64,000 nt of DNA from Candidatus Eiseniibacteriota bacterium (GCA_024276995.1 JAJRWB010000050.1:80359-144358), one strand, 5' to 3'; shown: positions 10,967 to 34,479, counted from the stretch's first letter. Numbers and translations: made by a program. The notes: generated from the sequence alone by a model not told the origin.

Positions 10967-11971
10967 GTGACCATGGAAACCACCACGGTGGAAAACCGTT
11001 TCACATTGATCGTCCAGGGGCCGGATGGGGGACCCGGGGAATTCGCCGACGCCGTGGCAAAAGGGCTTTCCGGGGAACGGAAATCGATTCCCTGCCGTTA
11101 TCTCTACGACCACCGAGGATCGCTTCTTTTCGAGGATATCTGCGCTCTCGATGAGTACTACCCGACACGCGCCGAAAGGGAGATTCTCGAAACGAGAGCC
11201 GACGAGATCGCATCCCTCCTTCCGGAAAACGCCGAAATCGTCGAGCTGGGAAGCGGGAACGCGAGAAAGACAACGCTCCTGATCGAATCGTTTCTTAGGA
11301 AGAACGGCCGCCTCAGCTATAACCCTATCGACATTTCGCGGAAGATGATCGAAGGGAGTTCGATCAGTCTGCTGAAGCGTTATCCCGACCTGGAGATCCA
11401 GGCGATCGCGGGAGATTACGGCGACGGGCTCGAGTTGATGCGGACATCGGGAGAGGGCGTGAAACTGATCCTATGGCTCGGCTCTTCGGTGGGGAATCTC
11501 GATCGGGAGGAGGCGGCCGAGTTCCTTTCCGACGTGAGAGGCCACATGGGCGCGAACGACCGGCTTCTCATCGGCATCGACCTTCGAAAGTCGAAGAAAG
11601 TGCTCGAAAAAGCTTACGATGATCGCACCGGGATCACGGCGAAGTTCAACATGAATCTCCTCCGTCGGATGAACGACGAACTGGGCGCTTCCTTCGACAT
11701 CAGGAAATTCGCCCACCGGGCGACATACCACGAGGAGGAGGGTCGGGTTGACATGGAACTCGTCTCCGTCGAGGCCCATACGGTGCGCATCGAATCGATC
11801 GATCTCGACGTGGCGTTCCGCGAAGGGGAGACGATTCACACCGAATCGTGCTATAAATACTCCCCCGAAGAGATCGACGCTCTGTTCGCGGCATCGGGTC
11901 TGGAAAACGTAAGGCGTTGGCTCGATTCGCAGCACCGGTTCAGTCTCTCCCTCGCCGCCCCGCTTCCATGA
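10967..11971 (+). CDS. egtD: EgtD-family SAM-dependent histidine N-alpha-methyltransferase-like protein
   Basis: Hallmark EgtD/Methyltransf_33 N-terminal motif YLYDHRGSLLFEDICALDEYYPTRAEREIL and a GSGNARKT SAM-binding loop. No egtB/egtC are visible in the window. Confidence 0.7.
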   Translation: MTMETTTVENRFTLIVQGPDGGPGEFADAVAKGLSGERKSIPCRYLYDHRGSLLFEDICALDEYYPTRAEREILETRADEIASLLPENAEIVELGSGNARKTTLLIESFLRKNGRLSYNPIDISRKMIEGSSISLLKRYPDLEIQAIAGDYGDGLELMRTSGEGVKLILWLGSSVGNLDREEAAEFLSDVRGHMGANDRLLIGIDLRKSKKVLEKAYDDRTGITAKFNMNLLRRMNDELGASFDIRKFAHRATYHEEEGRVDMELVSVEAHTVRIESIDLDVAFREGETIHTESCYKYSPEEIDALFAASGLENVRRWLDSQHRFSLSLAAPLP

Positions 11972-12001: not shown

Positions 12002-13354
12002 TCAGGCCGTGGACAGGGCGTCCGCCGTCTCCGGTGCTTCGGACGACGAATGCTCGTTGTCGCCGCCTTCCCCGTCATCGCCGTCCGGATTCTCCAGCGG
12101 AAGTCGTATGTGGAACGTCGTCCCCTTCCCGACTTCCGAATCGAAGGTCAACTCCCCCGAGAGCTTGTCCACCACCACCGACCGGGCGATGGCGAGTCCC
12201 TGCCCCGTTCCCTTCCCCACTTTTTTCGTTGTGAAGAACGGATCGAGAATGCGATCGCGTATCTCCTCGGGAATGCCTGCGCCCGTATCGGAAATGCTCA
12301 CCACGGCGTACCCTTCCTCGAGCTTCGTCGATACGACGATCTTTCCCTTCTCCACCGGCGATTCACCCAGCTTCTCCCCGATGGCGTGGGCGGCGTTGAC
12401 GACGAGGTTCAGCACCACTTGGTTGAACTCTCCGGGAAGACACGGCACGAGGGGAAGATCGGGATCGAGATCGAGCTCCAGGTCGGACACATACTTCCAT
12501 TCGTTTCGCGCCACCGTGACGGTGCTTCCGATCGCTTCATTCAGGTTGAACGGCGTGATCTCCTTCGTGCTCGGATGGGAGAATTCCTTCATGGCGAGAA
12601 CGATTTCCGAAACCCTGTCGGTCCCTTCGATCGACTGCTTCAGTGCCTTCGGAATCTCCTCGCTCAGGTATTCGATGTCGGCGTTCTCCATCTCCTCACG
12701 ACAGGTGGCGAGCATTTCATCGGTGACGGGTCCCTCTTTCGCCTTGTCGAGCATTTCGCGGAACACCTTTACACATTCGAGAATGTCGGCGAAGGAGGTG
12801 TTCAGGAAACGGAGGTTGTCTCCCACGTACTGCGTGGGCGTGTTGATCTCGTGGGCCACTCCGGCGGCGAGTTGGCCGATCGACTCCAGCTTCTGCGCCT
12901 GGAGGAGCTGCGCCTGGAGGATGCTCTGCTCGGTAACGTCGGTGGCGAGAAAGAGAAACTCCGACTGGACGCCCACTTCCTCATTTCCGCCGCGGATCGG
13001 GCTGATCCGGATGTCGAGGAAACCATCCGACCCGTCGGGTCTCTTGTAGCTCACGTTGTTCGCGCTCAGTCCCGAATCGCCGCCTCCGTTTTCGGGGAGC
13101 GATTCGAGCACTCTCGACCAATCCCACTGGACGCCGCATTCGAGGAAGGGGCGGCCGATCACGTCATTCGCCGGAATACCGAAGAGCTTCTCCGCCGCCG
13201 GGTTCCACTGACCGACCGTCTGGTCTTTGCCCACGCCGATCAGCGCGGACGATATGGAAGCGAGGAGTCTTTTCGTCCACTCGTGCGCCTGGCTAAGTCG
13301 ATCATTCGCGTCTTTCGCGTCGACCGTGCCGCTCCAGTCATTTTCCACGGTCAT
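12002..13354 (-). CDS. PAS-domain sensor histidine kinase
   Basis: HisKA H-box (AAGVAHEINTPTQYV) and HATPase_c (DTGAGIPEE..GTGQGLAIARS) with an N-terminal PAS-like region. Confidence 0.85.
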   Translation of the reverse strand: MTVENDWSGTVDAKDANDRLSQAHEWTKRLLASISSALIGVGKDQTVGQWNPAAEKLFGIPANDVIGRPFLECGVQWDWSRVLESLPENGGGDSGLSANNVSYKRPDGSDGFLDIRISPIRGGNEEVGVQSEFLFLATDVTEQSILQAQLLQAQKLESIGQLAAGVAHEINTPTQYVGDNLRFLNTSFADILECVKVFREMLDKAKEGPVTDEMLATCREEMENADIEYLSEEIPKALKQSIEGTDRVSEIVLAMKEFSHPSTKEITPFNLNEAIGSTVTVARNEWKYVSDLELDLDPDLPLVPCLPGEFNQVVLNLVVNAAHAIGEKLGESPVEKGKIVVSTKLEEGYAVVSISDTGAGIPEEIRDRILDPFFTTKKVGKGTGQGLAIARSVVVDKLSGELTFDSEVGKGTTFHIRLPLENPDGDDGEGGDNEHSSSEAPETADALSTA

Positions 13355-13552
13355 AACCCTCCGAATCCGCGTGATTCACGGCGCGCATCGTGCCGCGCCG
13401 CGGGAGATGATCTTCCCGCACCGTTGTTTCGGCCGGCCCGGCTTTTTCCTTTAGTGCCGGCATCGCCGCATTCAAGTCGACCTCCCTTCCGGGCGATTCT
13501 TCGTTAGGACGGTTCGCGCCGCGGCGGCGCGCCCTGGTCCCCGGAAGGAGCC

Positions 13553-16598: not shown

Positions 16599-17683
16599 TG
16601 GATTCCGGGGACGGGGCGCGACGTCTGCCGGTCACGCTCTGCATGATCAACCACAATGGAGAAGCGATCCTGGAACAGTCGGTGGGCGCGGCCGTGGCGC
16701 GCTCGCATCTGTTCAGCCGAATCATCATCGTGGACAACCGCTCGAGCGACGGCAGCATCGCCCTCGTGAAGAGGCTCTTCCCGTCGGTCCGGATCGTTTC
16801 GATGGACAAGAACCGGGGCGCCGCGGCGGCACGGAACAGGGCGTGGCGGGAAGCGGGGGGCGGCGGTACGATTCTCTTTATCGATAACGACGTTATTCTC
16901 GAGGACGGGTGCGTGGAACGCCTATCGGCCGCCCTCGACGATCACCCGGCCGCCGTGGCGGCGATGCCCGCGGTGCTATACGCCGCGGACCGGGAGCGGG
17001 TACAGTATGATGGGGCGGATTCCCATTATATCGGCGTCGTCTCTCTCCGTCATGCGGGGAGAGCGGCGGCGGAACTCGACGGCGCGGTCACGCCGATCGG
17101 TTCGCTCATCACGGCGTGTTTTCTCTTCGACGGCGACCGGTGGGGGAAAGACGAACCGTTCGATGACGCGTTCTTCATCTACCTGGAAGATCACGACCTG
17201 GGTCTGCGTATCCGTATGAGGGGAGGAACGATCCTCTCGGTGCCGGCGGCGCGCTGCCTCCACGGCGAAGGAGCGGTGGATCTATCGCTTCGCTCCACAG
17301 GGCGACAAACCCCTTTGCGAATAAAAGAGCTGGTCCGGAACCGGTGGCAAATCATCTGGAAGAACTACTCGGCGAAGACGATCGTTCTCCTCCTCCCGAT
17401 GTTCGCGATCTATGAAATCGCCCAGATCGGAGGGGTGATCGCCGGGGGATGGATCGGGCCGTATTCCCGCGCGGCGACGTGGTTCATCCGGAATTTGCGC
17501 TCCATCGCACGCCGGCGGCGGGAAGCGCAGCGAAGACGCGTCGTGCCGGACGGCGAGCTTCTCACCGGTGGACCGCTCCCATTCGCCGGGGAATGGAAAC
17601 CGGGCGGGCCCGAGCGGGTCGCGCGATCACTTCTCGATTCGTTCAGCCGCCTGTACTGGCGGATTATCCATCGGGCGGTGTAG
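16595..17683 (+). CDS. GT2-family glycosyltransferase
   Basis: GT-A N-terminal domain (IIIVDNRSSDGS..ILFIDNDV) with a C-terminal membrane-associated region. The start overlaps the SDR stop. Confidence 0.8.
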   Translation: MMDSGDGARRLPVTLCMINHNGEAILEQSVGAAVARSHLFSRIIIVDNRSSDGSIALVKRLFPSVRIVSMDKNRGAAAARNRAWREAGGGGTILFIDNDVILEDGCVERLSAALDDHPAAVAAMPAVLYAADRERVQYDGADSHYIGVVSLRHAGRAAAELDGAVTPIGSLITACFLFDGDRWGKDEPFDDAFFIYLEDHDLGLRIRMRGGTILSVPAARCLHGEGAVDLSLRSTGRQTPLRIKELVRNRWQIIWKNYSAKTIVLLLPMFAIYEIAQIGGVIAGGWIGPYSRAATWFIRNLRSIARRRREAQRRRVVPDGELLTGGPLPFAGEWKPGGPERVARSLLDSFSRLYWRIIHRAV

Positions 17684-17685
17684 CC

Positions 17686-19209
17686 GTGTCGATCAGCCCA
17701 CAGGGAAGAGCGACCGCCACGGCGACGCTCCTTATCGCCGCCGGGTTCTTCATCCGGCTTCACGGCCTCGGCGCCGAAAGCCTCTGGATCGACGAGGCGC
17801 ACACCGCCGCGGTCGCCCGCATGCCGGTGCTCGAATTGCTGAAAACGGTCGCCCTCGACAACCATCCTCCGCTCTCGTTTCTCGTGGAACGGGGGGCGCT
17901 CCTTCTCCTCGGCGATTCCGAGGCGGCGCTCCGCCTCCCATCGCTCCTCTTCGGAACGCTCACCATCGTGGCGGCCGGAGCGGTCGCGAAGCGTCTCTTC
18001 GGTGAAACGGCGGGATTGATCGTCGCGCTGATCACGGCGCTCTCCCCGTTCCAGCTCCATTATTCCCAGGAAGCCCGATCGTACGAGCTTCTCGCGCTCC
18101 TCACGGCGTGTTCATTCCTCTCTCTCATCCGCTTCGCCGAGCGGCCCACAGCGAAACGGGCGGCGACATACACGGCCGCCACGGTGCTTCTCCTCTACAC
18201 CCACTACTACGGCTTCTTCGCCGTGGCCGCGCAGAACGTTCTCTTCTTCGCGGGCGTCGCCGCCGGTGCGCGCGGATACCGGCGCGGTGTGGCGACGTGG
18301 CTCCTCGTGCAGGGCACGGTGCTTCTCCTTTTCGCGCCGTGGGCCGGCGCCGCGATCCGCGCCGTGAGTGATCGTCTCAGCACCGGCCCGATCCTTCCGC
18401 GTCCGACGGCGCGAAAACTGATCGGTCCGTTCATCTCGTGGGCCGGATCACCGCTCTCGTTTCTCCTTTTCGGCGTACTTTCGTTGAACGCGCTATCCCT
18501 TCCCTTCCGTTCGCCGAGTGACGACCGGACGATGAAATCGCTCTTCCTTCCCATCGGTGAACCGCCCGACAAGGAAAGACGCTCCGACCCTGCGCGGGTA
18601 TTCCTTCTCGCCGTCTGGATCACCATTTCCCTTTATGTACCCATCGTCATGTCGTGGTTCGTTTCTCCCTTCTTCGTCACCCGCTACGCCATCGGCGGTT
18701 CGATCGCCTTCTATATTCTCGTCGCCGCCGGAATCATCTCGATCGGAAGGAGCGGCGTGAGAAAGGCGGTGATCGGCGCGGTGATCCTCCTCTCCCTCGC
18801 CGGCATCCGGCGTTACCATCACGCCGTGAACAAGGAGCCGTGGCGGGAAATCGCCGCCATGGTCGACGCGCGGGCACAAGAAGGCGATCTACTCCTGTTC
18901 AACGCACCGTTCTGCGAGCCTCCCTTCGATTACTATTCGAAGCGGGCCGGCCTGAGACGGGCGAGCTTTCCCGACCCTTACGGCGCGGTGGAGCGATCCG
19001 ACCTCGGGAAGCTCGACACTCTCATCGCCCCATTCGACCGGATCTGGTTCATCGACGCGTACTCCCGCGACAAGGACGGTCTCGTTCGCGACCGGCTCGA
19101 CGAAGCGAGACGGTTCACCGCCGAAAACCTCTTCCCGAGCGAGGCGAGCGCCACGGGGAAGAAGGTGACCGTCGACGTCCGCCTTTATGACGGGGAAAAG
19201 ACGCCATGA
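17686..19209 (+). CDS. GT-C family membrane glycosyltransferase (GT39/GT83-like)
   Basis: GTG 17686, in frame with track ORF 17449..19209 and 3 nt after the GT2 stop, gives VSISPQGRATATATLLIAAGFFIRLHGLGAESLWIDEAHT.. This is a polytopic protein with a DE-containing first loop typical of ArnT/PMT-type enzymes. Confidence 0.7.
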   Translation: MSISPQGRATATATLLIAAGFFIRLHGLGAESLWIDEAHTAAVARMPVLELLKTVALDNHPPLSFLVERGALLLLGDSEAALRLPSLLFGTLTIVAAGAVAKRLFGETAGLIVALITALSPFQLHYSQEARSYELLALLTACSFLSLIRFAERPTAKRAATYTAATVLLLYTHYYGFFAVAAQNVLFFAGVAAGARGYRRGVATWLLVQGTVLLLFAPWAGAAIRAVSDRLSTGPILPRPTARKLIGPFISWAGSPLSFLLFGVLSLNALSLPFRSPSDDRTMKSLFLPIGEPPDKERRSDPARVFLLAVWITISLYVPIVMSWFVSPFFVTRYAIGGSIAFYILVAAGIISIGRSGVRKAVIGAVILLSLAGIRRYHHAVNKEPWREIAAMVDARAQEGDLLLFNAPFCEPPFDYYSKRAGLRRASFPDPYGAVERSDLGKLDTLIAPFDRIWFIDAYSRDKDGLVRDRLDEARRFTAENLFPSEASATGKKVTVDVRLYDGEKTP

Positions 19210-20474
19210 GCGGGGAGAAGATCCGGGTCGACACGATGATCGCCTACCTTTCACAGGCGTTTTACAAGCTCACCGGGTTTCTCATTCTTGCGCTCCTGGC
19301 GCGGTACCTTGCGAAGGACGACATGGGTGCGTTCTTCTTCGCCGCCACGTTCACCTCCCTCGGTGCACTTCTCACCGAGTTGGGAACGAACGCGCACCTG
19401 ACGAGAAGCATCTCCGCCGATCCGGCCGGAGCGCGCCGCGCCGTGAGCGACGTACTCTCTCTCAGGATTCCCCTGGCGGCGACCTGCTTCGTCGCGATCA
19501 CCCTCTTCGCACTTCTCTTCCGCCGGGAGATCTGGATCCTCGTTCTCCTCTCGTCGATCTACGCCCTGATCGAACAGATCTACCATTCCTTCGGCGCTCT
19601 CTTTCTCGGATCGAGGCGGGTCGTGTTCAACGTGACGAGCGGCATGATCTCCCGGGGACTTCTCGTGGCGCTCATCCTGTTCGCCGTGCGCCACCGGTTC
19701 GACGTGCTCGGCGTGGCGGCGTGCTATATCACCGCCGACACGGTGATGCTTGTCATCGCCGTCGCGTTGTCGCGCCGTATCGTTCCCGGCATCCGCCCGC
19801 ACTGGGCGCCCCGGGCCGCGCTCTCCCTCGCACACATCACGTTCCCGCTTTTCGCCATGCAGCTTCTCACGATGATCCATTTCCGGATCGACTCCGTGAT
19901 GATCGGATTCCTGAGGGACTATGCCGACGTGGCCACGTATGAATCGTCGTTCCGCCTTCTCGAGGCGTCACGCTTCATCGTTCTCCCGCTGAGCATGATC
20001 TTCTTTCCCCTCTTTTCCGAAATCGCGGGCAAGGGGAACTGGTACGAACTGAAGCGGTTCGTCTTTCGCCTCACCGGTGCGGCAGCGCTCGCAGGGGGGG
20101 TGATGGCGATAACGGTGATCGCCGGGGCGGCGGTGATCATCCCGGCGGTGTTCGGCAACGGATACGGTGAGTCGATTCCGGTCCTCCGGGTGCTCTTCCT
20201 GTCGGTGCCGATGATCTTCGCCGCCCGGGTCGCCACCTTCTCGGCGAACGCCATGCACCTGGAAAAAAGGTGCGTCCCTGTTCTGCTCGCTTGTACGATG
20301 ATCAACGTGGCGCTCAACGGAGCGGCCATTCCGATTTGGGGCGCCGGGGGCGCCGCGGTGACCACCGTGATTTCCGAAACGATTCTCGCGGTATGGCTGA
20401 TCGTTCTCGTCCGCAACGAAGCGGACCGGCGCATCGCCGGTGCGACGAATGGAGGTGCCGTCGGTGGCCGTTGA
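19206..20474 (+). CDS. polysaccharide/oligosaccharide flippase (MOP superfamily, Wzx-like)
   Basis: 422-aa 12-TM protein. The start overlaps the preceding stop by 4 nt (operon coupling). Confidence 0.7.
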   Translation: MSGEKIRVDTMIAYLSQAFYKLTGFLILALLARYLAKDDMGAFFFAATFTSLGALLTELGTNAHLTRSISADPAGARRAVSDVLSLRIPLAATCFVAITLFALLFRREIWILVLLSSIYALIEQIYHSFGALFLGSRRVVFNVTSGMISRGLLVALILFAVRHRFDVLGVAACYITADTVMLVIAVALSRRIVPGIRPHWAPRAALSLAHITFPLFAMQLLTMIHFRIDSVMIGFLRDYADVATYESSFRLLEASRFIVLPLSMIFFPLFSEIAGKGNWYELKRFVFRLTGAAALAGGVMAITVIAGAAVIIPAVFGNGYGESIPVLRVLFLSVPMIFAARVATFSANAMHLEKRCVPVLLACTMINVALNGAAIPIWGAGGAAVTTVISETILAVWLIVLVRNEADRRIAGATNGGAVGGR

Positions 20475-21504
20475 AACGCTTCATTTCGATTTCCACGGAA
20501 CCGCGGTGACGGTGACGACGAACGATGCCGAAACGGCGCGTTTCGTCGAGTCCGATTTTTCCTGGTTCCTCGTGGAAGAACCGCGCCGAGCCGGTCCCCC
20601 CTCGATCACTGTGGATCTTCATTTCAGCGAAGTTCCCTTCGACAGGATCCCCGAGGGAAAAGTGGCGGCGTACCACACGAAAGACGCCGTGGTATACAAG
20701 GAGGGGAGCACGGCGTTCTACGACTCGGGCGAGGCGCTCGTAATCTACGATTTCGCGGCGCGAAGGGCGGAGGTGCACAGCCTATCGAGAGACCTTCTCT
20801 TCGAGCGGGCGTACTTGATGATCTCGAGCCGCGTGGGCGACGCCATGGATCGGCGGGGACTTCACAGGATCCATGCCATGGGTGTTGCGTACCGGGGCCG
20901 CGGGGTGGTCTGCCTGATGCCTTCGGGCGGCGGCAAGACGACGCTCACGCTCTCGCTCATGAAAGACGAGCGCTTTCAGCTTCTTTCCGAGGAGATCCCC
21001 CTGGTCACGCGGCGGGGCGAGCTCCTTCCCTTCCCGATACGTATGGGCGTCCGCCCCGGCGAGAGCCTGTCGATTCCCGTTGAATTCCTGAAGCCCTTCG
21101 AGCGCACCCACTACGGCCCGAAGACACTCATCGATGTTCGCTGCTTCGCCGGGCGCATCGCCGGTATCACCGAACCGGGAATCGTATTCGCCGGAAAACG
21201 GATTCACTCCGACCGTCCCGCCGTGGTGCCCATTTCACGCATGAAGGCTTTCATGGCGCTTTACCGCTGCTGTGTCGCCGGCGTCGGGTTGCCGCAGATG
21301 CTCGAGTACATCCTCCGGTTCGACCTGTCCGATATCTTCCGGAACACCCCCGTGATTCTCTCGCGCCTGGTCGCGTCGATCCGGCTCATCGGTCGAAGCC
21401 AAACCTACGAGCTTCGCCTCGGGCGGGACCGCGAGGCGAATGCGCGCTGCGTGGCGGATTTCGTCGCGTCCATCTTTTCCGGCGAGAGGAGGGAGCGGAA
21501 GTGA
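20440..21504 (+). CDS. HPr-kinase-like P-loop kinase (HprK C-terminal-domain family)
   Basis: P-loop LMPSGGGKTTLTLSLM in an HprK/P-like C-domain context (GVAYRGRGVVCLMPSGGGKTT). It is embedded between the flippase and the GT4 gene with overlapping boundaries. Confidence 0.65.
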   Translation: MRRMEVPSVAVETLHFDFHGTAVTVTTNDAETARFVESDFSWFLVEEPRRAGPPSITVDLHFSEVPFDRIPEGKVAAYHTKDAVVYKEGSTAFYDSGEALVIYDFAARRAEVHSLSRDLLFERAYLMISSRVGDAMDRRGLHRIHAMGVAYRGRGVVCLMPSGGGKTTLTLSLMKDERFQLLSEEIPLVTRRGELLPFPIRMGVRPGESLSIPVEFLKPFERTHYGPKTLIDVRCFAGRIAGITEPGIVFAGKRIHSDRPAVVPISRMKAFMALYRCCVAGVGLPQMLEYILRFDLSDIFRNTPVILSRLVASIRLIGRSQTYELRLGRDREANARCVADFVASIFSGERRERK

Positions 21505-22685
21505 TCCGCCCGTTTCGAATCGCCATGGTGGCCGCCTGCCCCTTCCCGTGGCCCCGGGGAACGCCGATCCGGATCCTGCGCATGGCGGAGGTCCTGGCGG
21601 CGCGCGGACACGAGGTTCACGTGGTGACATATCATCACGGAAGAGATGACGACCGTTCGATCGATACCCTGCATATCCACAGGACACGGAAAGTCCCGTT
21701 TTGCGGGAAGTATGCTCCCGGCCCGACGTACGGCAAGCTCTTCCTTCTCGATCCCCTTCTCGCCCGACTTCTAGGGCGGGTCATCCACCGCCGGGGGATC
21801 GACGTGGTGCACGCCCATCACTACGAGGGTCTTCTCGCCGGCGCCTTTGCCGTGAGAAGGACGAAACTCCCCCTCGTCTACGACGCCCACACGCTGCTCG
21901 AATCGGAGCTTCCGTCGTACGGCCTCGGTCTTCCCCGGCGTGTGAAAAGAGCGCTCGGGCGCGCCATCGACGAGAGGCTTCCCCCCATGGCGAACCACGT
22001 CGTGAGCGTGACGGCGAGGATCCGGGAGAAGCTGATCGCCATGGGCCGAATCGACGAGGGGGCCGTTACCGTGGTGCCGAACGGCGTCGAGTTCGACCGC
22101 TTCGCGGCGATTTCGCCGGCGGGCGGCGGAAAAGACCGGTCGAACCGTCTCGTGTTCGCGGGGAATCTCGCCCCCTACCAGGGAATCGAGAAAATGCTCG
22201 CCGCGCTGCGCGACGTCGCCCGCGCCGTTCCCGGCGTGCGCCTCCGCTTGGTGACGAATTCCTCGTTCGCGCCGTACGAGCGCCTTGCGCGCGAACTCGG
22301 CGTCCGCCGCGCCGTCGAGCTGATCCCCTCGTCCTTCGCCGACCTTCCCCGCCAACTCTCCGAGGCTGCGGTGGCGCTCAACCCGCGCACCGGATGCGAC
22401 GGCATTCCGCAGAAGCTTCTCAACTATATGGCGGCCGGTCTGCCCACCGTTTCCTTCGAGAGTTCCGCCCCGTGTGTCGATCATGGGAAGACCGGCTGGG
22501 TCGCCCCGGACGGCGACACCGCCGCCTTCGCCGCCGGGATCGTCCGCCTGCTGGGCGACGGCGATCTGGCGGGGCGTCTCGGCGCGGGTGGGCGTGAATT
22601 CGTCCGTACCCGCCACACGTGGGAGGAGAGCGCGGCGGCGCTCGAGAGGATCTACGACGATCTCACAGGAGGCGATGCGCGCTGA
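21501..22685 (+). CDS. GT4-family glycosyltransferase
   Basis: GT-B fold with typical GT4 C-terminal region (LVFAGNL..LNPRTGCDGIPQKLLNYMAAGLPTV). The start overlaps the kinase stop (ATGA). Confidence 0.85.
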   Translation: MIRPFRIAMVAACPFPWPRGTPIRILRMAEVLAARGHEVHVVTYHHGRDDDRSIDTLHIHRTRKVPFCGKYAPGPTYGKLFLLDPLLARLLGRVIHRRGIDVVHAHHYEGLLAGAFAVRRTKLPLVYDAHTLLESELPSYGLGLPRRVKRALGRAIDERLPPMANHVVSVTARIREKLIAMGRIDEGAVTVVPNGVEFDRFAAISPAGGGKDRSNRLVFAGNLAPYQGIEKMLAALRDVARAVPGVRLRLVTNSSFAPYERLARELGVRRAVELIPSSFADLPRQLSEAAVALNPRTGCDGIPQKLLNYMAAGLPTVSFESSAPCVDHGKTGWVAPDGDTAAFAAGIVRLLGDGDLAGRLGAGGREFVRTRHTWEESAAALERIYDDLTGGDAR

Positions 22686-22744
22686 ACCGGTTCTCGCCCA
22701 GGCTGTTTCTGAGGAGGTTCGTGCTCGCCACGTCCTTCCCCCCG

Positions 22745-24301
22745 ATGCTCCAGCTCTACACGCTGGCGTACACGGCGGTCACCCGCATCGCCCTTCGTCT
22801 TTTCCGCCGCTACGACGCCGTGAGAGCGGTCTACCTCCGCCGCGGGGGCGCCAGAGGCGAGATCCTCCCGCTGGTGAGCGACATCGATTTCGCCCTGATC
22901 AGTGAGAACCTCGACGACGCCGACCGCAACGAACTTCTCGATGGCTACGAGGTCCTCGTGCGGCGAACCACTTTGCTCGACAAGACCCTCGAGATCTACG
23001 ACGAAGAACAGTTCTTCGACGCGTATCGCACGAACGATTACGCCCGCTACCGTTTCGCCGAGGGAAAGAAAACGTGGAAACTCCTCTACGGCCGTGACTA
23101 CGTCGCCGAGCTGCCCGACCTGCCGGACGAAGAGATGGCGGCCGGATACTATACCGAGATCAAGGTGTGGTGGGCGCTCTTCGCGTGGCGCTTCTTCCGG
23201 AGGGGAAAGTACTCCGGCGAACGGGTGACGGAAAACAACGCCTGCTTCAAGACGGTGAGCGAAATTCTCAAGATGGAGACGGCGCTGACGAGAGGGGAGT
23301 GGATCGTTTCGCGCGCCGAGGCGCTCGAACGGGCGGCGGAATTCCTGGATGGAGCCGAGCGCGAGTTCGTCCGGGCGCTGAGCCGGATCGCCGGGCACCG
23401 CTTCCGGCCCAGGCGAAACGGGGTGGTGGACGAGACGCTTTCCTTTCTTCTCGCGAGGCTCGATCGGCTCTACGGAGAACTGCGCTCCCACCCGATCGCC
23501 TCACCCCTGGACGAGCGCTCCCATCTGCTCGACTACGAGAGGAGCGAATCGCCGGGCGCGAAGGAAGAGGATCGCTTCTTCGAAAGGACACTGTCGTTCA
23601 TCGAAAAGAGGTGGGCGGTCCCCGTGCGGGCCGCCCGCGCCGTGCCGGGAGCATACTTCAACATCGACGAGCGTCTCCTCGTCCTCGAAATCGACGGCCA
23701 CAGGCCGCCGCCGGTGAGCGACCTCCTCGCGCTGAACGACCACCTTGCATCGGAGACGGCCCATGTGCGCGGGCGGATCCCGATTTTCCTGCGCATCGGG
23801 AACGCGGCTCTTCGCATCGACCCGGATGACCTGATGCGAAGCTGGCAATCGATCCTCTTTCCACCGTGCAACCCGGACGTTTTCGATCTTCTCGCCCGCG
23901 ACGACTCGCTCGTCGCCGGCCCGCCGTCACGCTCGCCGGCACCGCCGGCCGGTCCGGCGTGGACGCCGCTGGTGCGCCACTTCTTCGATGAAGAGGAGAT
24001 GCTCTTCTACGAACTTCTCCGCAACAAGGCGGTGTATAAATTGAACACGCTCGACTTCTGCCGCATTTTCTGGAAAACAGCGCAGCTCGTCGTGCTGAAC
24101 CGATCGGCTTCGGAGGGAACGATCCGCTACGCCATGACACCCGCGGCCATATCGAGGGAACTCTCCCGCATCGGCGCGGCGATACCGTCGAACCTCCTCG
24201 CCCTAGACCCGATCTATGCGGAGGCGATCTTTGGCGGGGAGAGCGACGTGGGGGAGTTCATTCCGCCGGCGCTCGACTACCTCATGGAGATCGAACGATG
24301 A
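22745..24301 (+). CDS. nucleotidyltransferase-domain protein (Pol-beta-like NTase fold) with large C-terminal domain
   Basis: Internal ATG (MLQLYTLAY..) of track ORF 22619..24301. NTase signature G-x-RG-[ED]-x-x-P-x-SDIDFAL (GGARGEILPLVSDIDFALIS). 519 aa. Confidence 0.6.
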   Translation: MLQLYTLAYTAVTRIALRLFRRYDAVRAVYLRRGGARGEILPLVSDIDFALISENLDDADRNELLDGYEVLVRRTTLLDKTLEIYDEEQFFDAYRTNDYARYRFAEGKKTWKLLYGRDYVAELPDLPDEEMAAGYYTEIKVWWALFAWRFFRRGKYSGERVTENNACFKTVSEILKMETALTRGEWIVSRAEALERAAEFLDGAEREFVRALSRIAGHRFRPRRNGVVDETLSFLLARLDRLYGELRSHPIASPLDERSHLLDYERSESPGAKEEDRFFERTLSFIEKRWAVPVRAARAVPGAYFNIDERLLVLEIDGHRPPPVSDLLALNDHLASETAHVRGRIPIFLRIGNAALRIDPDDLMRSWQSILFPPCNPDVFDLLARDDSLVAGPPSRSPAPPAGPAWTPLVRHFFDEEEMLFYELLRNKAVYKLNTLDFCRIFWKTAQLVVLNRSASEGTIRYAMTPAAISRELSRIGAAIPSNLLALDPIYAEAIFGGESDVGEFIPPALDYLMEIER

Positions 24302-25463
24302 ACGAGGAGAAACGTCTCACCACGTCGGTGGTGGTGGTCACGAAGGACCGCCCCCGCCTGCTCGGCGGACTCCTTCGTTCACTCGTCGCCCAGACGCTTC
24401 CTCCCGACGAAGTGCTGGTGGTGGACAACGGATCGTCGAGAAGCTACAATGAAGTGTTTCGCGAATTCGCGCCGCTTCTCCCGCTCCGAACGGTGGTGGA
24501 GACGAAGCCGGGCATTCCCGCGGCGAGAAACCGCGGCGTCCGGGAAGCGACGGGAGAGATCATCCTGTTCACCGACGATGATTGCGCCGCCGATCCGCGA
24601 TGGGTGGAATGTCTGGTGAAACCGTTCTACAGGAACCCCTATATCGGCGCCGTGGGCGGGGAGATCGATTCTGTCGAGAAGGCGGGCGGTATCGTGGAAG
24701 AGTTCTGCATTTCGGAAACTCTCATGCGAATGGGAAAACGGCCGGACGGCGGGCGATGATCATCGACATCTCGAAAAGCGGCTACCAGCGCGGCTACCTC
24801 CCCGGGAAGGGCATCGGTGTGTTCCACCCCTTCTTCGCCACGGCGAACGCGGCGTTCCGAAAGGAGGCGATCGAAAAGGCGGGCGGCTTCGACCCGAAGT
24901 GCTCCACCGGAGAGGATGTCGATCTTTCGATCCGTGTCGCCCGCGCCGGGTACGAGCTCTGGTTCGAACCGTCGGCACGAATCGTCCATTTCCACCGCTA
25001 TACGCTTAAAGGACTTCTCGTGCAGTGGTATCGGTACGGTCTCGGCCACGCGTATCTCTTCAAGAAGCATTCGCGCCGGAAGAGGCTCGAGTTCTACCGG
25101 TACGACCTCTCACCGAAGAACACCGACCCGTTCGGCATCGCCCGGGTGGCGCGCTTCCCCTTCCCCGTTCACGGTATGATCTTCCTGAGCAGCTTCCACT
25201 TCATGAACGCCGGCGCTCTCGCGGGCGTGGCCGCGTGGCGATTCCTCTCCCCCGCCGCGGCGGCCGTTCCTCTCGCCGTGGCGCTCATCGCCGGATGCTG
25301 GTACTTCTCGATCCGCTTCGACCGGCGCCGCCCGCTCAAATCGACGATCCTCTCCGCCTTGCGGTATGCGGCGGACGGCGCCTACGTACTCGGAGGATTC
25401 GCCGGCGGGATCCGCGAGAGGATGATCTACATCGAGGCGACACGCACCAGACGCCGCCCCTGA
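24298..25463 (+). pseudogene. GT2-family glycosyltransferase, apparent frameshift near 24735-24758
   Basis: ORF 24298..24759 carries the GT-A N-terminus (VVVVTKDRP..VLVVDNGSS..ILFTDDDCAADPRW). ORF 24582..25463, in another frame, carries the GT2 C-terminus (GKGIGVFHPFFATANAAFRKEAIEKAGGFDPKCSTGEDVDLSIRVARAGYEL) plus TM helices. Together they make one normal-length GT2. Confidence 0.5.
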
Positions 25464-25637
25464 CGGTTCGAAGGAAACCGCCATTGAAGGGCGCGTCTCT
25501 CCCGCACGAGCATTGCGTAACTCCTTCCATTATTCGTGTGATTGTGTTATGATCTTATCGCGTTGTCATACGCGCATGGCCGTCGCGCCCCCCCGGCTGT
25601 TCAGCACGATCCATGGAAAACATAAGGAGGATTTCTG

Positions 25638-26693
25638 ATGAAGTTCCGCGCCCTCGTGATCCTCGGCCTGATCGCCGTGACGGCGATTCCCGCCGCAGGA
25701 GCGCAACGGAAAGTGCTCGTCGAGTACTTTTCGAACGATACGTGACCGTACTGCGACGACATCGATCCGGGCATGGAGGCCCGTTTCGGATCGATGTACG
25801 CGGGGCAGGTTGCTCCGATCGAGTGGCACGTCAACTGGCCGAACTCCGCCGACCCGGCCTACCTGTATAATCCTACGGAGGTAGAGGACCGGCGAACTTG
25901 GTACGTCCCGGTGACCTACGTTCCCCAGTTCCGTTTCGACGGGAAGGATATCATCCAGTATAACGGCGTCGACACGACCGCATGGTTCGCCGATTTCGAA
26001 AGAGTGGTCGACAGCCTCCTGCTTCTTTCGAGTCCCATCGCGGTCGATCTCATCCACACGCGGGACGCCGATTCGGTGTATATCACCGTGGTGGTGACCG
26101 TCGAAAACGTACCGAGCGGATCGCTCAACCTCTTCGTAACCGCTTCCGAAGAATGGTATCGCGACTCCCCGTTCGGAAAGCAGTGGTACGTCTTCAGGGA
26201 TATGCTCACCGGCGCCACGGGCGACCCGATTTCGCTCACTACGCCGGGGGAGATCGTATCGATGCAGTACTCTTATCCGATCGATACGCTCTATCATCCC
26301 GCCAGGCTGATCACCACCGCCTGGGTGCAGAAGTCGAGCACCAAGAAGGTGCTCAACTCGGCGAGCGAACTCGTTCCTCTCTACACGGTGGGCGTGCCGG
26401 GGAGCGAGGTGCCGGTGCGGATCGTTCTCGATCAGAACACGCCGAACCCGTTCAACCCGACTACCTCTATCGGCTTCTCCCTCGACAGGGAAAGTCGCGT
26501 GCGGTTATCGGTCTACTCGCAGGCGGGACGGCTCGTCACGAACCTCGTGGACGGCCGGGTCACGCCCGGTTCCCACTCGGCGACGTGGAACGGCACGGAC
26601 CTCACCGGGAAGGCGGTGGGAAGCGGCGTCTACTACTACCGCCTCGACACGGACAAGAACTCTCTCACGGGGAAAATGATCCTCGTTCGCTGA
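25638..26693 (+). CDS. secreted thioredoxin-fold candidate selenoprotein (UxxC motif) with FlgD-Ig/T9SS-type C-terminal sorting domain
   Basis: ATG 25638 with a perfect AAGGAGG RBS 7 nt upstream gives MKFRALVILGLIAVTAIPAAGAQRKVLVEYFSNDT-[TGA 25743-25745]-PYCDDIDPG. This continues in frame into track ORF 25773..26693. The TGA sits where the first Cys of a Trx CxxC motif would be (VLVEYFSNDT-U-PYC), and a cis-Pro region (VTYVPQFRFDGKD) follows. The C-terminus is QNTPNPFNPTTSIGFSL..SGVYYYRLD..KMILVR. Confidence 0.7.
25761..25795 (+). promoter_or_regulatory. SECIS-like stem-loop 15 nt downstream of in-frame UGA
   Basis: AUCGAUCC-GGGC-[AUGGAG]-GCCC-guuuc-GGAUCGAU has an 8-bp lower stem, a 5-nt 3' bulge, a 4-bp upper stem and a 6-nt G-containing apical loop. 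Read directly from the sequence. Confidence 0.5.
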
Positions 26694-26729
26694 CGGCGGA
26701 GCGAACGTCCTGCACTATCGGCCTCCGGA

Positions 26730-26766
26730 GCCCGGGAATCGAACGATCCCGGGCTTTTTTCCTTTT
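26730..26766 (+). terminator. rho-independent terminator after selenoprotein paralog 1
   Basis: GCCCGGG-aatcgaacgat-CCCGGGC followed by TTTTTTCCTTTT. Confidence 0.65.
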
Positions 26767-26792
26767 CAAAACTGTTCACTCCGTTGTATAAT
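26765..26792 (+). promoter_or_regulatory. sigma70-like promoter for paralog 2 (TTCAAA-16 nt-TATAAT)
   Basis: -35 TTCAAA at 26765-26770, a 16-nt spacer, and a perfect -10 TATAAT at 26787-26792, about 70 nt upstream of ATG 26865. Confidence 0.45.
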
Positions 26793-26864
26793 GCATGTTG
26801 TGAATACCTGTGGAATTCACCCGCTCCCGAAAGCCGCAATAGACTCGAACAAAGGAGGAGTACG

Positions 26865-27941
26865 ATGACGAGACGGGCATGGATGGTCCCTGCTCTCCTG
26901 GCACTGCTGGCGCTTCCCGCCACTGCCGCCCAGCGGACGGGTGTTCTCTACGAGGACTTCACCAATGTAGGGTGACCCACGTGCGAAACGATTCGCGACA
27001 GCATGGACGCCATCCTGATGTCGCGTTTCCCGGGGCAGGTTGCTCCGGTACGATACCACGTGAACTGGCCCGACGGGACGGACCCGTATTACGCTTTCAA
27101 CCCGACACAGGTGAACGAGCGGAGAACGTATTACGACTCGACGGTCAACGGCGTGCCGATGATGTTCTTCGAGGGGCAGTATCTCTCCCAGGTGTGGGAC
27201 GGCTCCTTCGCGACCTACACCGACTGGTACAACTGGGTGCGCGCCACCCTCGACAGTCTGTACCTCATCCCAAGCCCCGTGAGGATCAATCTCCAACAGG
27301 TGAGGGACAACGATTCGGTCTATGTCGCCATCGACGTGATTTCCGAAGATACTCTCGGAAGCGCCCCGAACATTTTCGTCTGCTACGAAACGACGTGGGA
27401 CCGGTATCCCGGGAAGGGGAAGTATCGCTACGTCTTTAGGAGCATGGACCCGAACTCCGTCGGGGGAACTCTTCTCGGACTCACCTTACCGGGCGATTCG
27501 GTTCACGTCGAATACACGTATTACATGGATCCCGCGCTGAACAAGAGCCGCATGATGACCACAGTGTGGGTGGAAAGCAACAACGTCGGGGGCGGAGTGC
27601 TCAACTCGATCTCCGAGGAGGTGCCCGCCTACACGGTCGGTGTGCCCGGAGGCGCCGCACCGGTGCGGATCGTGCTCGATCAGAACGCGCCGAACCCGTT
27701 CAATCCGACTACGACGATCGGCTACTCCCTCGACAAGGAGAGCCTCGTGCGCCTTTCGGTCTATTCGCAGGCGGGACGGCTCGTTACGAATCTCGTGAAC
27801 AGCCACATGCCGGCCGGATCGTACTCCGTTCCCTGGAACGGCACCGACCTTTCCGGCAACCCCGTGGGGAGCGGCGTCTACTACTACCGCCTCGACGCGG
27901 AGAAGAGTTCGCTCACCAACAAGATGATCCTCATCCGGTAA
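26865..27941 (+). CDS. secreted thioredoxin-fold candidate selenoprotein paralog 2 (UxxC motif) with the same C-terminal sorting domain
   Basis: Track ORF 26784..26975 ends at TGA 26973-26975, and ORF 27003..27941 continues in the same frame. ATG 26865 with RBS AAAGGAGGA gives MTRRAWMVPALLALLALPATAAQRTGVLYEDFTNVG-[TGA]-PTCETIRDS.. The TGA aligns exactly with the TGA of paralog 1 (G-U-P-T-C vs T-U-P-Y-C). The C-terminal domain is about 85% nt-identical to paralog 1. Confidence 0.7.
26994..27025 (+). promoter_or_regulatory. SECIS-like stem-loop 18 nt downstream of in-frame UGA (paralog 2)
   Basis: CGCGACA-[GCAUGGACGCCAUCCUGA]-UGUCGCG is a 7-bp stem whose loop contains an AUGG/CCAU sub-helix. 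It lies at the same relative position as in paralog 1. Confidence 0.4.
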
Positions 27942-31262: not shown

Positions 31263-32156
31263 TCACCTCACCTTTTCGAGGAGAGCGCCGATCTCGTCGA
31301 TCGCCCTTCCCACCCTCGGTCCCGGAACGAGGAGTTCGTCCCCCGTAAGGATGAATACACGTTTCGCCGCCGCCGCGTCCAGCCCGGGAAGGCGGGCCCA
31401 GTCGGCGAGACGCTCCGTCTCCTCCCCCGGTCGGATCGTGCGGCCCGGCTGCAGCTCGATGATCACCTCGGGATTCCGGTGGAGCACTTCCTCCACGCCG
31501 GGCGACGGGTAGCGACCGAGGGCGTCGCCGAAAGCGTTCTTTCCGCCGTTGAGACGGATCACCTCGTCGAGGTAGGTACCCGGACCGGCGACATAGAAGC
31601 CGGTGAGAGATCCGGCGACACGGTCGACCACGATCATCACGGTCCACTCCTTCACCGGCTTCCGGGCACGTGCCCGCTCCACGGCGCCACGGATCTTCCC
31701 GGCGAGCCGGCCGGCGGCCTCTTCCCGCCCGGTGGCGGCGCCGATCGCCTCGATGGCGCCGATCACGTCGTCCACCGTGTCGTTCGGCAGGGTGATCGTC
31801 GCGATCCCTCTCCTTTCGAGCTTCGCCGCCAGCGCCGCGTGGGCGGGGAGCATGATGGCGAGCGTCGGCTCGAGAGAGAACATTCTTTCCACGTCCGGGT
31901 TGAGGAGACCACCGATTCTCGGCTTCCTTGCCGCCTCCTCCGGATAGCGGCAGAAGTCGGTGACGCCGACGACCTCGGCACCGGCGCCGAGGGCGAAGAG
32001 CGTCTCGGTGATATTCGGCGCCAGAGAGAGGATCCTCATCGAACCGGCCGGCGGTGCCGGAGAACGCCCCTCCCCGTCATCGCCGCACGAAAGGAGCGGC
32101 GGAAGCACCACGAGCGCCGCGACGACGGCGGCCGACCGTAACTTGTTAAATATCAA
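31263..32156 (-). CDS. ABC transporter periplasmic substrate-binding lipoprotein (BtuF/FepB class)
   Basis: Binding-protein core (MRILSLAPNITETLFALGAGAEVVGVTDFC) preceded by a lipoprotein signal (AALVVLPPLLSCGDD). TTG start at 32156 is assumed; the track ORF extends to 32438 with an implausibly long leader. Confidence 0.7.
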   Translation of the reverse strand: MIFNKLRSAAVVAALVVLPPLLSCGDDGEGRSPAPPAGSMRILSLAPNITETLFALGAGAEVVGVTDFCRYPEEAARKPRIGGLLNPDVERMFSLEPTLAIMLPAHAALAAKLERRGIATITLPNDTVDDVIGAIEAIGAATGREEAAGRLAGKIRGAVERARARKPVKEWTVMIVVDRVAGSLTGFYVAGPGTYLDEVIRLNGGKNAFGDALGRYPSPGVEEVLHRNPEVIIELQPGRTIRPGEETERLADWARLPGLDAAAAKRVFILTGDELLVPGPRVGRAIDEIGALLEKVR

Positions 32157-32358
32157 CGAATTTAACCCTCGCTCGGCGCCGTGCCGGCGCGCAACAGGTT
32201 GAAATCGATTGCCGCAATACATTACATACTTTAGTATGGAGGATCGCTCCCGTAGCGTCCCGGCTCCGGGAACGATTGTAACGCCCTCCCCGGGGGGGCG
32301 CATCATCGAATCCCCTGCCCGCCCGATCCGGCGATCCGGGCGGGAAGTCTGAGGAACC

Positions 32359-34479
32359 GTGGGAAGAACGAGGACGAAGAACGGTACGGGGACGAAACCG
32401 GCCCTCGGGAAGTTGAGCCGCGAGCAATGCCTCGACATCTATAGGCTCATGTATACGTCGAGGATGATCGACGACACCGAGATCAGGCTGAAGCGGAAGA
32501 ACCAGATCTTCTTCCAGATCAGCAGCGCCGGACACGAGGCGGTCACCGTGATGGCGGGCCTCGCCCTCAGGCCGGGCTACGACTGGTTCCACACGTACTA
32601 CCGCGACCGAGGACTCTGCCTCGCCCTCGGCGTCACCCCCTACGAGATGTTTCTTTCATCGGTGGGTGCCGTCGACGATCCCGCCTCCGGCGGCAGGCAG
32701 ATGCCCTCCCACTGGGGCCACCGGCGGCTTAACATCGTCTCCGTTTCGAGTCCCACGGGCACGCAGGTGCTCCAGGCTGCGGGCATCGCCGAGGCGTGCC
32801 GCTATGGCCACGCCGCGGACGGGGTGGAGGGGGACTTCCCGCGCGACGCCGTGGTGCTCGCCTCTCTCGGCGACGGGACGACGAGCGAGGGAGAATTCTG
32901 GGAGGCGATGAACACGATCTGCAACAACCGCCTCCCGGTGCTCATCCTGGTGGAGGACAACGGATACGCCATTTCCACGCCCGTGAAGGAGCAGACCGCG
33001 GGGGGCGATATTTCCATGCTTTTCCGGAGCTATCCGAATCTTCTCCTTCATAAGGTCGACGGCTGCGACCCGGTGGCATGCCATGATGTCTTCGAGGAGG
33101 TGACCGCCCATATTCGCGCCGGCAGGGGTCCGGCACTGGTGCACGCGTCGGTGATCCGCCCCTACTCCCACTCGATGTCCGACGACCACCGGTCGTACAG
33201 GACGGAAGAGGAGATCGAAGCGGAATTGAAGCGCGACCCGATCCCCTCGTTCGCGCGGCGGATGGTGGACGCGTCCGTCGCCACCGAGGAGGAGCTTTCC
33301 GCCATCCGCGCAGCGGTGCACACCGAAATCGCCGAAGCGGAAGAACGGGCGGTGGCCGCTGTCAAGCCGGCTCCGGAGGATGCCCCCCTCTACCTATATT
33401 CCCCCGACGTCGACCCTTCGTCGGACCGGTTCGATACGGTGCCGGAGGACGGAGGGAGCCCGCTCTCCATGGTGGAGCTGATCAACCGCTGCCTCCGAGA
33501 CGAAATGAGCCGCGACCCTCGGATCGTCCTCTTCGGCCAAGATGTGGCCGACGCGAGCCGGGAAAGGGCGAAGGGAGATGTGAAGGGGAAGGGGGGGGTC
33601 TTCAAGGTCACCGCCGGACTCCAGAGAGAATTCGGCAAGGAGAGGGTCTTCAATTCGCCCCTCGCGGAAGCGAATATCGTCGGACGTGCGATCGGATGGG
33701 CGACGCGGGGCCTCAAACCGGTCGTAGAGATACAGTTTTTCGATTATATATGGCCGGCCTATATGCAGATTCGATGTGAAGCGGCGATGCTCAGATGGCG
33801 TTCACGGAATATGTGGAGCTGTCCGTTGGTGATTCGCGTACCGATCGGAGGATATCTCCAGGGAGGGGCGATCTACCACAGCCAGTCGGGCGCCGTGCTG
33901 ATGACCCACAACCCGGGGCTGCGGGTGGTGATGCCCTCGAATGCCCGAGACGCCAACGGCTTGCTCCGCACGGCGATACGGTGTGACGATCCGGTTGTTT
34001 TCCTGGAGCACAAACACATATACCGCCAGCCGTATGCGAAGTCAGCCTACCCGGGCCCCGACTACATGATCCCCTTCGGAAAAGCGAGAATCCATCGTGA
34101 GGGCGATGACGTGACGGTGGTGACCTATGGCGCCTTGGTAAGGCGGAGCGAGATGGCCGCCAGGAAGCTGGAGAAAGAAGGGATTTCGATCGAAATCATC
34201 GATCTCCGCTCACTCTCCCCCTGGGATACCGATACCGTCGCCCAATCGATCCGGAGGACGGGGAAGGTGATCGTCGCTTACGAGGACTGCCGCAGTTTCG
34301 GCTACGGCGCCGAGATCGCCGCCTGGATCGCGGACAACCTCTTCGAGGATCTTGACGCCCCTGTCAGCAGGGTCGCCGCCCTCGACACGCCGGTCGGCTA
34401 CTTCCCCACCCTCGAAGACGCCATCCTTCCCCAGATCGATGATATCGCCGGAGCGGCTCGAGAACTCCACCGGTTCTGA
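32359..34479 (+). CDS. 2-oxoacid dehydrogenase E1 component, fused alpha and beta subunits (TPP-dependent)
   Basis: The N-half has an E1-alpha TPP motif ([37 protein letters not shown]). The C-half is E1-beta/transketolase-like ([21 protein letters not shown]..). Single 706-aa ORF. Confidence 0.8.

Follow-up and report, generated by a model that had tools for sequence, protein, structure and literature searches.

A candidate two-hairpin selenocysteine signal in a subfamily of predicted secreted thioredoxin-fold selenoproteins with two members in a Candidatus Eiseniibacteriota bacterium

Is a UGA codon inside an otherwise open gene of a Candidatus Eiseniibacteriota bacterium read as selenocysteine (Sec), and which RNA structure would direct such a reading? 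The gene lies on a stretch of 64,000 nucleotides (GCA_024276995.1, JAJRWB010000050.1:80359-144358; hereafter the window, with positions counted from its first letter) and occupies positions 26865–27941 of the plus strand, as judged from its translation, from a Shine-Dalgarno (SD) sequence, and from Pfam and NCBIfam matches. Between the ATG at 26865, which is preceded by the SD sequence AGGAGG (26853–26858), and the TAA at 27939–27941, the frame contains just one in-frame TGA, codon 37 at 26973–26975. A related gene on the same strand (25639–26693, stop codon TGA), recognised by translation, domain scans and sequence identity, has an in-frame UGA at the aligned codon, 25743–25745. We refer to this gene as paralog 1 and to the former as paralog 2. 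A first-pass annotation of the window had drawn attention to a hairpin shortly after the UGA of paralog 2 that resembles a Sec insertion sequence (SECIS). Our analysis indicates that the UGA is very probably a Sec codon and that this hairpin, termed H1 below, belongs to its signal. With a probability of about 50%, we favour a bipartite recoding signal, in which UGA 26973 would be read as Sec in a secreted, HBP35-like protein of thioredoxin fold, a second hairpin (H2) would present the loop for SelB, and H1 would position it.

The case for Sec starts from the correspondence between UGA and cysteine codons. An exhaustive HMMER search returned 2709 relatives, and motifs were counted in the best 152 of these 2709: 104 carry a CxxC-type motif, and 14 begin at a conserved Met just past the position of the UGA. 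In the underlying DNA, TGA occupies the codon aligned to the first Cys of the motif in 16 distinct loci, with the protein conserved on both sides, and the Cys homologues have TGY at this place. The sequence FTNxxUxxC, in which the UGA of paralog 2 would supply the first position of UxxC, aligns to FTNxxCxxC of P0002 (CPPC in that protein) and of other Cys forms. Retention of TGA in 16 loci whose Sec-form proteins are 31–46% identical in most pairs excludes a sequencing error or a pseudogene. Reassignment of UGA in the genetic code is ruled out as well, because TGA terminates 26 of the 38 long open reading frames (ORFs) of the window, paralog 1 included; as it is the commonest ordinary stop codon, recoding would have to be specific to the site. 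A scan of the window and of the related loci for other genes with in-frame TGA found none outside this family. Upstream of the UGA, a signal peptide and a first beta-strand are encoded, with an SD sequence ahead of that start, and no SD sequence was seen upstream of the internal ATG at 27003 of paralog 2. From this correspondence we infer that Sec is inserted at codon 37.

Tandem second Sec paralogs are also seen elsewhere (given as locus and position: L007:2962 and 4245; L009:2551 and 3865, equal to L011:1471 and 2785; L014:1084; L018:1032), with distances from UGA to UGA of 1283–1314 nt, as compared to 1230 nt in the window. The two window paralogs are 40% identical over the N-terminal domain, and the members of the L007 and L009 pairs are 53–59% identical; such low identity within pairs suggests that the duplications are old.

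H1 of paralog 2 (26994–27025, plus strand) is located within the ORF, just after the presumed Sec codon. Its 7-bp stem joins CGCGACA (26994–27000) to UGUCGCG (27019–27025) around a partly paired apical region of 18 nt, GCAUGGACGCCAUCCUGA, which contains AUGG and CCAU. The first-pass annotation had placed this stem 18 nt past the UGA and had proposed pairing of AUGG with CCAU in the interval; sequence and fold agree with this description in every detail. The apical loop proper consists of 5 nt (CGCCA) and starts 32 nt past the UGA, and the hairpin with its 7 plus 5 interrupted base pairs reaches -14.2 kcal/mol. The stem is part of the minimum free energy (MFE) structure in contexts of 32, 68, 75 and 90 nt, with pair probabilities of 0.89–1.0 in three further contexts. 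Compared with dinucleotide shuffles, the isolated 32-mer has a z-score of -3.24 (1/200), which is reduced to just -0.87 in the 68-nt context; compared with synonymous-codon resamples drawn from the codon usage of the gene, z is -2.50 (4/300). Taken singly, H1 of paralog 2 is moderately unusual, and the decisive support is provided by comparison across the family.

The consensus model of bacterial SECIS elements by Zhang and Gladyshev has been summarised as a loop of 3–9 nt, an upper stem of 4–16 bp, a G within the first two nucleotides of the loop (usually as N1-G-[G|U]-N-N2, where N1 pairs with N2), a distance from UGA to loop of 16–37 nt, and an MFE of -7.5 kcal/mol or below (PMC13188914). 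Some predicted bacterial elements do not fit this model and may form distinct classes (PMC13188914). H1 of paralog 2 fits it in spacing, loop size and energy, and in having G as the second letter of CGCCA.

Among the main-clade Sec loci, H1 is present in 14 of 14 as an interrupted hairpin of 12–20 bp, which starts 7–15 nt past the UGA and whose apical loop begins 25–32 nt past it. RNAalifold finds its core unaided. In alignments of 12 sequences, 5–7 of the 10 pairs have changed on both sides, a value that none of 500 shuffles reached, and sliding the partner columns lowers pairing from about 85% to 35–52%. In synonymous resampling the median z is about -2.3 for Sec forms, whereas five Cys forms lie at about 0. 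Where the 3′ arm of a Sec form encodes Phe, it does so by UUU (5 of 5), a codon with a gene-wide share of about 16%; the three Cys forms use UUC. H1 is under synonymous-site selection in Sec forms, but not in the five Cys forms. Its apical loops vary in length (4–10 nt) and are not conserved in sequence, and the G rule of the consensus model holds in 9 of 14, which is about chance.

In paralog 1, H1 maps to 25759–25797 (plus strand) and comprises 13 bp followed by a 4-bp hairpin with the loop AGGC (z = -4.57). The two paralogs encode differing peptides here, and both fold strong hairpins. The earlier claim that position and shape are retained between them stands as far as the presence of a hairpin at this position is concerned; however, the same aligned columns are not paired. 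The two registers are about 1.5 nt apart, and both rows lie 3–4 nt off the family consensus. Paralog 2 keeps 7 of the 10 consensus pairs in a covariance-model alignment, while its much stronger flagged stem uses columns shifted by a few nucleotides. Similarly, the argument that conserved structure with drifting sequence points to function is sustained by synonymous selection and compensatory changes, although the loop is not conserved and the pairs are not identical. The apices contain AUGGAG in paralog 1 and AUGGAC in paralog 2, as the first-pass annotation had noted. AUGGA corresponds to a conserved pair of codons for Met and Asp/Glu, found in Cys homologues too, and was rejected as an RNA signal for this reason. 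A long-range closing stem between the region of the Cys codon and the Y-H-V codons, seen in several single-sequence folds, was likewise discarded, as RNAalifold did not support it in 14 sequences. With UGA at the first Cys of CxxC in 16 loci, the fit to the SECIS model, and selection confined to Sec forms, the proposal of a functional, SECIS-like hairpin at this place is supported. H1 is very probably part of the signal, but probably only half of it, as the adjacent and far better conserved H2 had been missed; the flagged hairpin may not be the half that binds SelB.

H2 of paralog 2 (27031–27047, plus strand) follows 5 nt downstream of H1. It is a 17-nt element, CGGGGCA-GGU-UGCUCCG, in the codons for P-G-Q-V-A-P, and gains an eighth base pair if 27030–27048 is considered. 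The GGU loop (27038–27040) lies 62 nt past the UGA. The 19-mer, with a 3-nt loop and 7–8 bp, reaches -12.2 kcal/mol at pair probabilities of 0.9–1.0, and both H1 and H2 fall within the loop, stem and energy limits of the consensus model. The same 17 nucleotides recur in paralog 1 (25801–25817, plus strand), and the core motif has two matches only in the window, one in each paralog. H2 is found in 14 of 14 main-clade sequences, 0–7 nt after H1, with its loop 59–62 nt and its base 52–55 nt from the UGA. Over 12 sequences, 98.8% of its positions are paired, and three pairs show compensatory changes. In L003, L004 and L009a the outermost pair is A-U in place of C-G, each time as a GAG codon together with CCU or UCU, so that the second position of one codon changes with the third position of the Pro codon. 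As L007a, the closest relative of L009a, keeps C-G, at least two independent switches have occurred. An inner pair is U-A in L003. The loop sequence A-GGU-U occurs in 10 of 14, and its GG dinucleotide is invariant.

H2 also stands out by its rare codons and by its distribution. The Val codon of the loop is GTT in 9 of 11 cases (about 15% gene-wide), and the Gly codon is GGG in 10 of 11 (about 20% gene-wide). All 14 Sec-form proteins contain the coding motif, [GVT]Q[VA][AV][PS] (GQVxP-type), whereas it is missing from each of the 104 Cys forms, where GK[IV]xP or another sequence takes its place; the hairpin was not found in six Cys-form DNAs, including that of the closest one, L023 (GRIAP). H2 covaries at synonymous positions, is under synonymous-site selection, and is restricted to Sec forms. 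A covariance model built exclusively from loci of other genomes hits the window exactly at 26973–27056 (44.1 bits, E about 4e-11) and 25743–25826 (39.4 bits, E about 1e-9). H2 of paralog 1 has a competitor in an outer extension of H1 that pairs CUGCG with CGCGG (window 25746–25830): the probability of H2 is 0.3–0.6 with the first 11 nt past the UGA free, and about 1.0 once these are omitted. Such removal mimics a ribosome positioned on the UGA, and H2 of paralog 1 would then form.

Based on these data, we hypothesize how the two hairpins might act together. When the UGA occupies the A site, the ribosome encloses roughly 11 nt beyond it, which would put H1 at the entrance of the mRNA channel, as is the case for the E. 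coli SECIS. With its long helix and variable loop, starting 11–18 nt past the UGA in this reading, H1 may stay folded at this entrance and thereby loop some 40 coding nucleotides out. H2, which lies 0–7 nt from the 3′ end of H1, would be held beside it and would present an fdhF-like loop for SelB. With H1 folded, about 11–20 nt of single strand would separate H2 from the UGA, which is near the 11 nt of the E. coli geometry. A SECIS grafted onto helix h16 of 16S rRNA still supports Sec insertion in E. coli, which indicates that spatial proximity and not linear distance matters (PMC10945757). Both this result and the rise of H2 in paralog 1 to about 1.0 are consistent with a mechanism in which H1 positions H2. 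Provided that the UGA is Sec and that H1 is part of the signal, the odds that H2 is the candidate SelB site are even or slightly better. A more general proposal, namely a split bacterial SECIS whose recognition hairpin sits about 60 nt downstream and is delivered by the folded H1, as a distinct class of bacterial SECIS beyond the 16–37-nt rule, is put forward tentatively and may well not hold.

Several observations weigh against the bipartite reading. H1 of paralog 2 alone satisfies the consensus model, and a one-hairpin explanation is sufficient in principle. H1 is within the spacing rule of this model (32 nt in paralog 2), but the H2 loop is outside it. In the fdhF element of E. coli, the determinants for SelB are G23 and U24 of the loop together with the bulged U17, and the hairpin is 11 nt from the UGA (PMC8659212); H2 differs in having no bulged U, in place of which there is always one G.U wobble, and in the distance of its base from the UGA, which nears 11 nt solely on the assumption that H1 is looped out. 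Rfam scans at gathering thresholds in the whole window and at E ≤ 10 in 25600–27100 produced chance hits only, with no SECIS family among them. Three divergent Sec forms (L015:1465, L017:524, and L018:1032, also termed L018b) have no H2 and fold one differing hairpin after the UGA. In L017 this hairpin has 9 bp and, at 24 nt from the UGA, a canonical GUCC loop; in L015 it has the loop AUCCUA, and in L018b it has 13 bp and starts 3 nt past the UGA, which suggests that the recoding structure has been remodelled within one protein family. L023, the closest Cys form, folds a strong hairpin in the region of H1. Furthermore, the sampled loci represent only about 9–10 independent lineages, and the association of H2 with Sec forms may reflect a single clade. 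Finally, within the 64-kb window there is no selA, selB, selC, selD or tRNA-Sec gene (no tRNA according to ARAGORN; no SelA, SelB or SelD among about 40 ORFs according to Pfam).

The most serious alternative is a classical one-hairpin SECIS, in which SelB would bind only H1, with H2 as an accessory that, for example, stabilises the H1 fold, insulates it from the sequence downstream or pauses the ribosome, or else has an unrelated role at the RNA level. This is somewhat doubtful in our estimation, albeit nearly as likely as the bipartite signal. Window H1 satisfies all parts of the consensus model by its 5-nt loop, the G in position 2, the distance of 32 nt and the energy of -14.2 kcal/mol; the spacing is kept at 25–32 nt throughout the main clade; H1 sits where the minimal SECIS of E. 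coli does; and divergent members such as L017 make do with a proximal hairpin only. What argues for the bipartite signal instead is that the H1 loop, at 4–10 nt and with the G rule followed at about chance level (9/14), is not conserved, that the pairing register of H1 shifts between lineages, and that the invariant G-G/U loop pattern and the fdhF-like GCAGGU are found on H2 and not on H1.

Two further explanations would remove the function of the RNA or of the Sec codon altogether, and both appear very unlikely. H1 could be a mere by-product of a conserved peptide (I-K/R-D...M-D...I-F/L) and GC-rich codons. In line with this, conserved residues account for the arms in the main-clade consensus register, partial hairpins can fold in Cys forms that share the peptide (L020, L022 and L023), and paralog 2 does not stand out in the 68-nt context (z just -0.87). 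However, resamples that preserve the peptide fold more weakly (z is -2.5 for paralog 2 and about -2.3 as the Sec-form median, compared with about 0 for the five Cys forms), the Phe codon of the 3′ arm differs between Sec forms (UUU, 5/5) and Cys forms (UUC, 3/3), H1 contains compensatory changes, and paralogs 1 and 2 arrive at strong hairpins from different peptides. The UGA could also be read through without Sec by a near-cognate tRNA as Trp or Cys, with the hairpins stimulating this process, or it could be a true stop with a separate ORF downstream, or the gene could be a pseudogene; this group of explanations is considered the least probable of all. The missing Sec machinery in the 64-kb window would agree with it, as would the behaviour of public gene callers, which split the two parts into separate ORFs. 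The position of the UGA at the catalytic Cys of UxxC, on the other hand, is the classic signature of a Sec/Cys pair, and it is kept in 16 deeply diverged loci. Moreover, the upstream part alone would consist of a signal peptide and one strand, and the downstream part alone would have neither signal peptide nor SD sequence. The related NF045500/GOS_C is an accepted predicted UxxC selenoprotein, and H2 resembles a loop that binds SelB.

Both paralogs encode the same succession of parts, namely a signal peptide, a thioredoxin-like domain with FTNxx-U-xx-C, a beta-rich middle part (beta-sandwich), and a C-terminal domain of the FlgD_ig/T9SS type A kind (T9SS, type IX secretion system). The redox motif would read G-U-P-T-C in paralog 2 and T-U-P-Y-C in paralog 1. 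At the C-terminus, the T9SS type A sorting domain TIGR04183 is found with 27.4 and 29.3 bits in the two paralogs (cut-off 23), and the Pfam family FlgD_ig with 36.2 and 33.5 bits (cut-off 27). The Omp28 family PF11551 scores 29.6 bits in paralog 1, below its gathering threshold of 34.9 bits, and has no hit in paralog 2. A profile of the family matches thioredoxins over positions 17–62, across the CxxC (E = 1.7e-4 to 7e-3). An AlphaFold (AF2) model, made for the full-length Cys homologue P0002 and not for the window protein itself, has a mean confidence (pLDDT) of 92.7 and displays a thioredoxin-like core, a beta-sandwich and an immunoglobulin-like C-terminal domain, with a strand at residues 26–32 and CPPC (36–39) at the start of a helix spanning 37–55. 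On this model, the N-terminal domain of the window protein is predicted to be a thioredoxin fold whose redox motif stands at the beginning of helix 1.

In public protein collections, both window genes appear solely as ORFs from an internal Met (P0001 with 312 and P0003 with 306 amino acids). This Met is ten residues past the UGA (27003–27941 and 25773–26693 of the window, respectively), and the resulting proteins are devoid of signal peptide, first strand and UxxC. The subfamily includes at least 12 further clusters whose ORFs start at the internal Met, too.

The surroundings of the two genes were inspected as well. Between the paralogs (26730–26792), a terminator-like hairpin (GCCCGGG...CCCGGGC with a T-run, loop of 11 nt, -18.2 kcal/mol) is followed by a sigma-70-like -35/-10 pair (TTTTCA or TTCAAA, then TATAAT ending at 26792), and separate transcription therefore looks likely. 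On the minus strand, positions 48495–53387 encode a protein of 1630 amino acids with fn3 repeats and the same FlgD_ig/Por_Secre_tail C-terminal domain, which suggests that the organism puts this sorting tail on other cargo too. Neighbouring genes in the window are concerned with glycosyl transfer and polysaccharide synthesis (17449–25463) and with a periplasmic binding protein (31263–32438). In related loci the neighbours are thiol-redox genes, with AhpC-TSA/Redoxin downstream or DSBA/Thioredoxin_4 upstream (L005:1796-2353; L019:1761-2092; L004:18-881). Further away, Methyltransf_33 (histidine-specific S-adenosylmethionine-dependent methyltransferase, EgtD-like) is found at 10967–11971 (E = 3e-107), followed by an ORF of 485 amino acids without a Pfam hit at 12050–13507; together these may be an ergothioneine-type locus. 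Positions 39758–47123 hold DUF3373, a multihaem cytochrome c (Cytochrome_cB/C7), DUF6599 and a 4Fe-4S protein of 728 amino acids, a cluster that may form a module for electron transfer outside the cell or in the periplasm.

Taken together, this data points to an unannotated and widely scattered subfamily of secreted, T9SS-tagged thioredoxin-fold proteins, presumably selenoproteins, which often occur in tandem pairs. Public gene calls that begin at the internal Met lose both the signal peptide and the active site of this subfamily. If the H2 loop is the SelB site, SECIS-based gene finders that apply a spacing of 16–37 nt would miss such genes. It would also mean that natural bacterial mRNAs can bring a SECIS to the ribosome through their fold instead of linear distance, for which support has so far come mainly from engineered constructs. 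In the literature, we found no paper on a two-hairpin bacterial SECIS, and none that ties Omp28, T9SS, FlgD or HBP35 to selenoproteins.

At the protein level, the best named hit of both paralogs is NF045500 ('Omp28-related selenoprotein'), with 32.4 bits for paralog 2 and 41.5 bits for paralog 1 against a cut-off of 200; the alignments span the Sec position (residues 25–166 and 19–244, respectively). NF045500 corresponds to the hypothetical protein GOS_C, a predicted UxxC selenoprotein with thioredoxin-like fold from the Global Ocean Sampling metagenome (PMC2398784; PMC13188914). The window proteins are likewise thioredoxin-like with UxxC, but carry the FlgD_ig/T9SS-type C-terminal domain, and judged by their sequences they are placed as a distant sister subfamily of NF045500/GOS_C and not as members. 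Among solved structures, the best match of the P0002 model is HBP35 of Porphyromonas gingivalis (PDB 5Y1A; E = 2.8e-12, TM-scores 0.53 and 0.59), a T9SS cargo protein with thioredoxin activity (PMC2907840, PMC3120885). HBP35 follows the same three-part plan, in which an N-terminal thioredoxin-like domain of CxxC type precedes a beta domain in the middle and a T9SS domain at the C-terminus; it uses Cys where the window proteins would have Sec, at a sequence identity of 14%.

At the level of RNA, the loop A-GGU-U of H2 fits the consensus N1-G-[G|U]-N-N2 exactly. The minimal SECIS of E. coli fdhF is GGUUGCAGGUCUGCACC, of 17 nt (PMC3834832), and H2 has the same length and shares GCAGGU with it. 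Known bacterial SECIS elements consist of one hairpin, whereas two conserved hairpins that covary and fold independently are found here, and the canonical loop is on the distal one. What is new is a subfamily of a known kind of predicted selenoprotein, and an arrangement of two hairpins in its candidate signal, in which the canonical SelB-type loop is the distal one.

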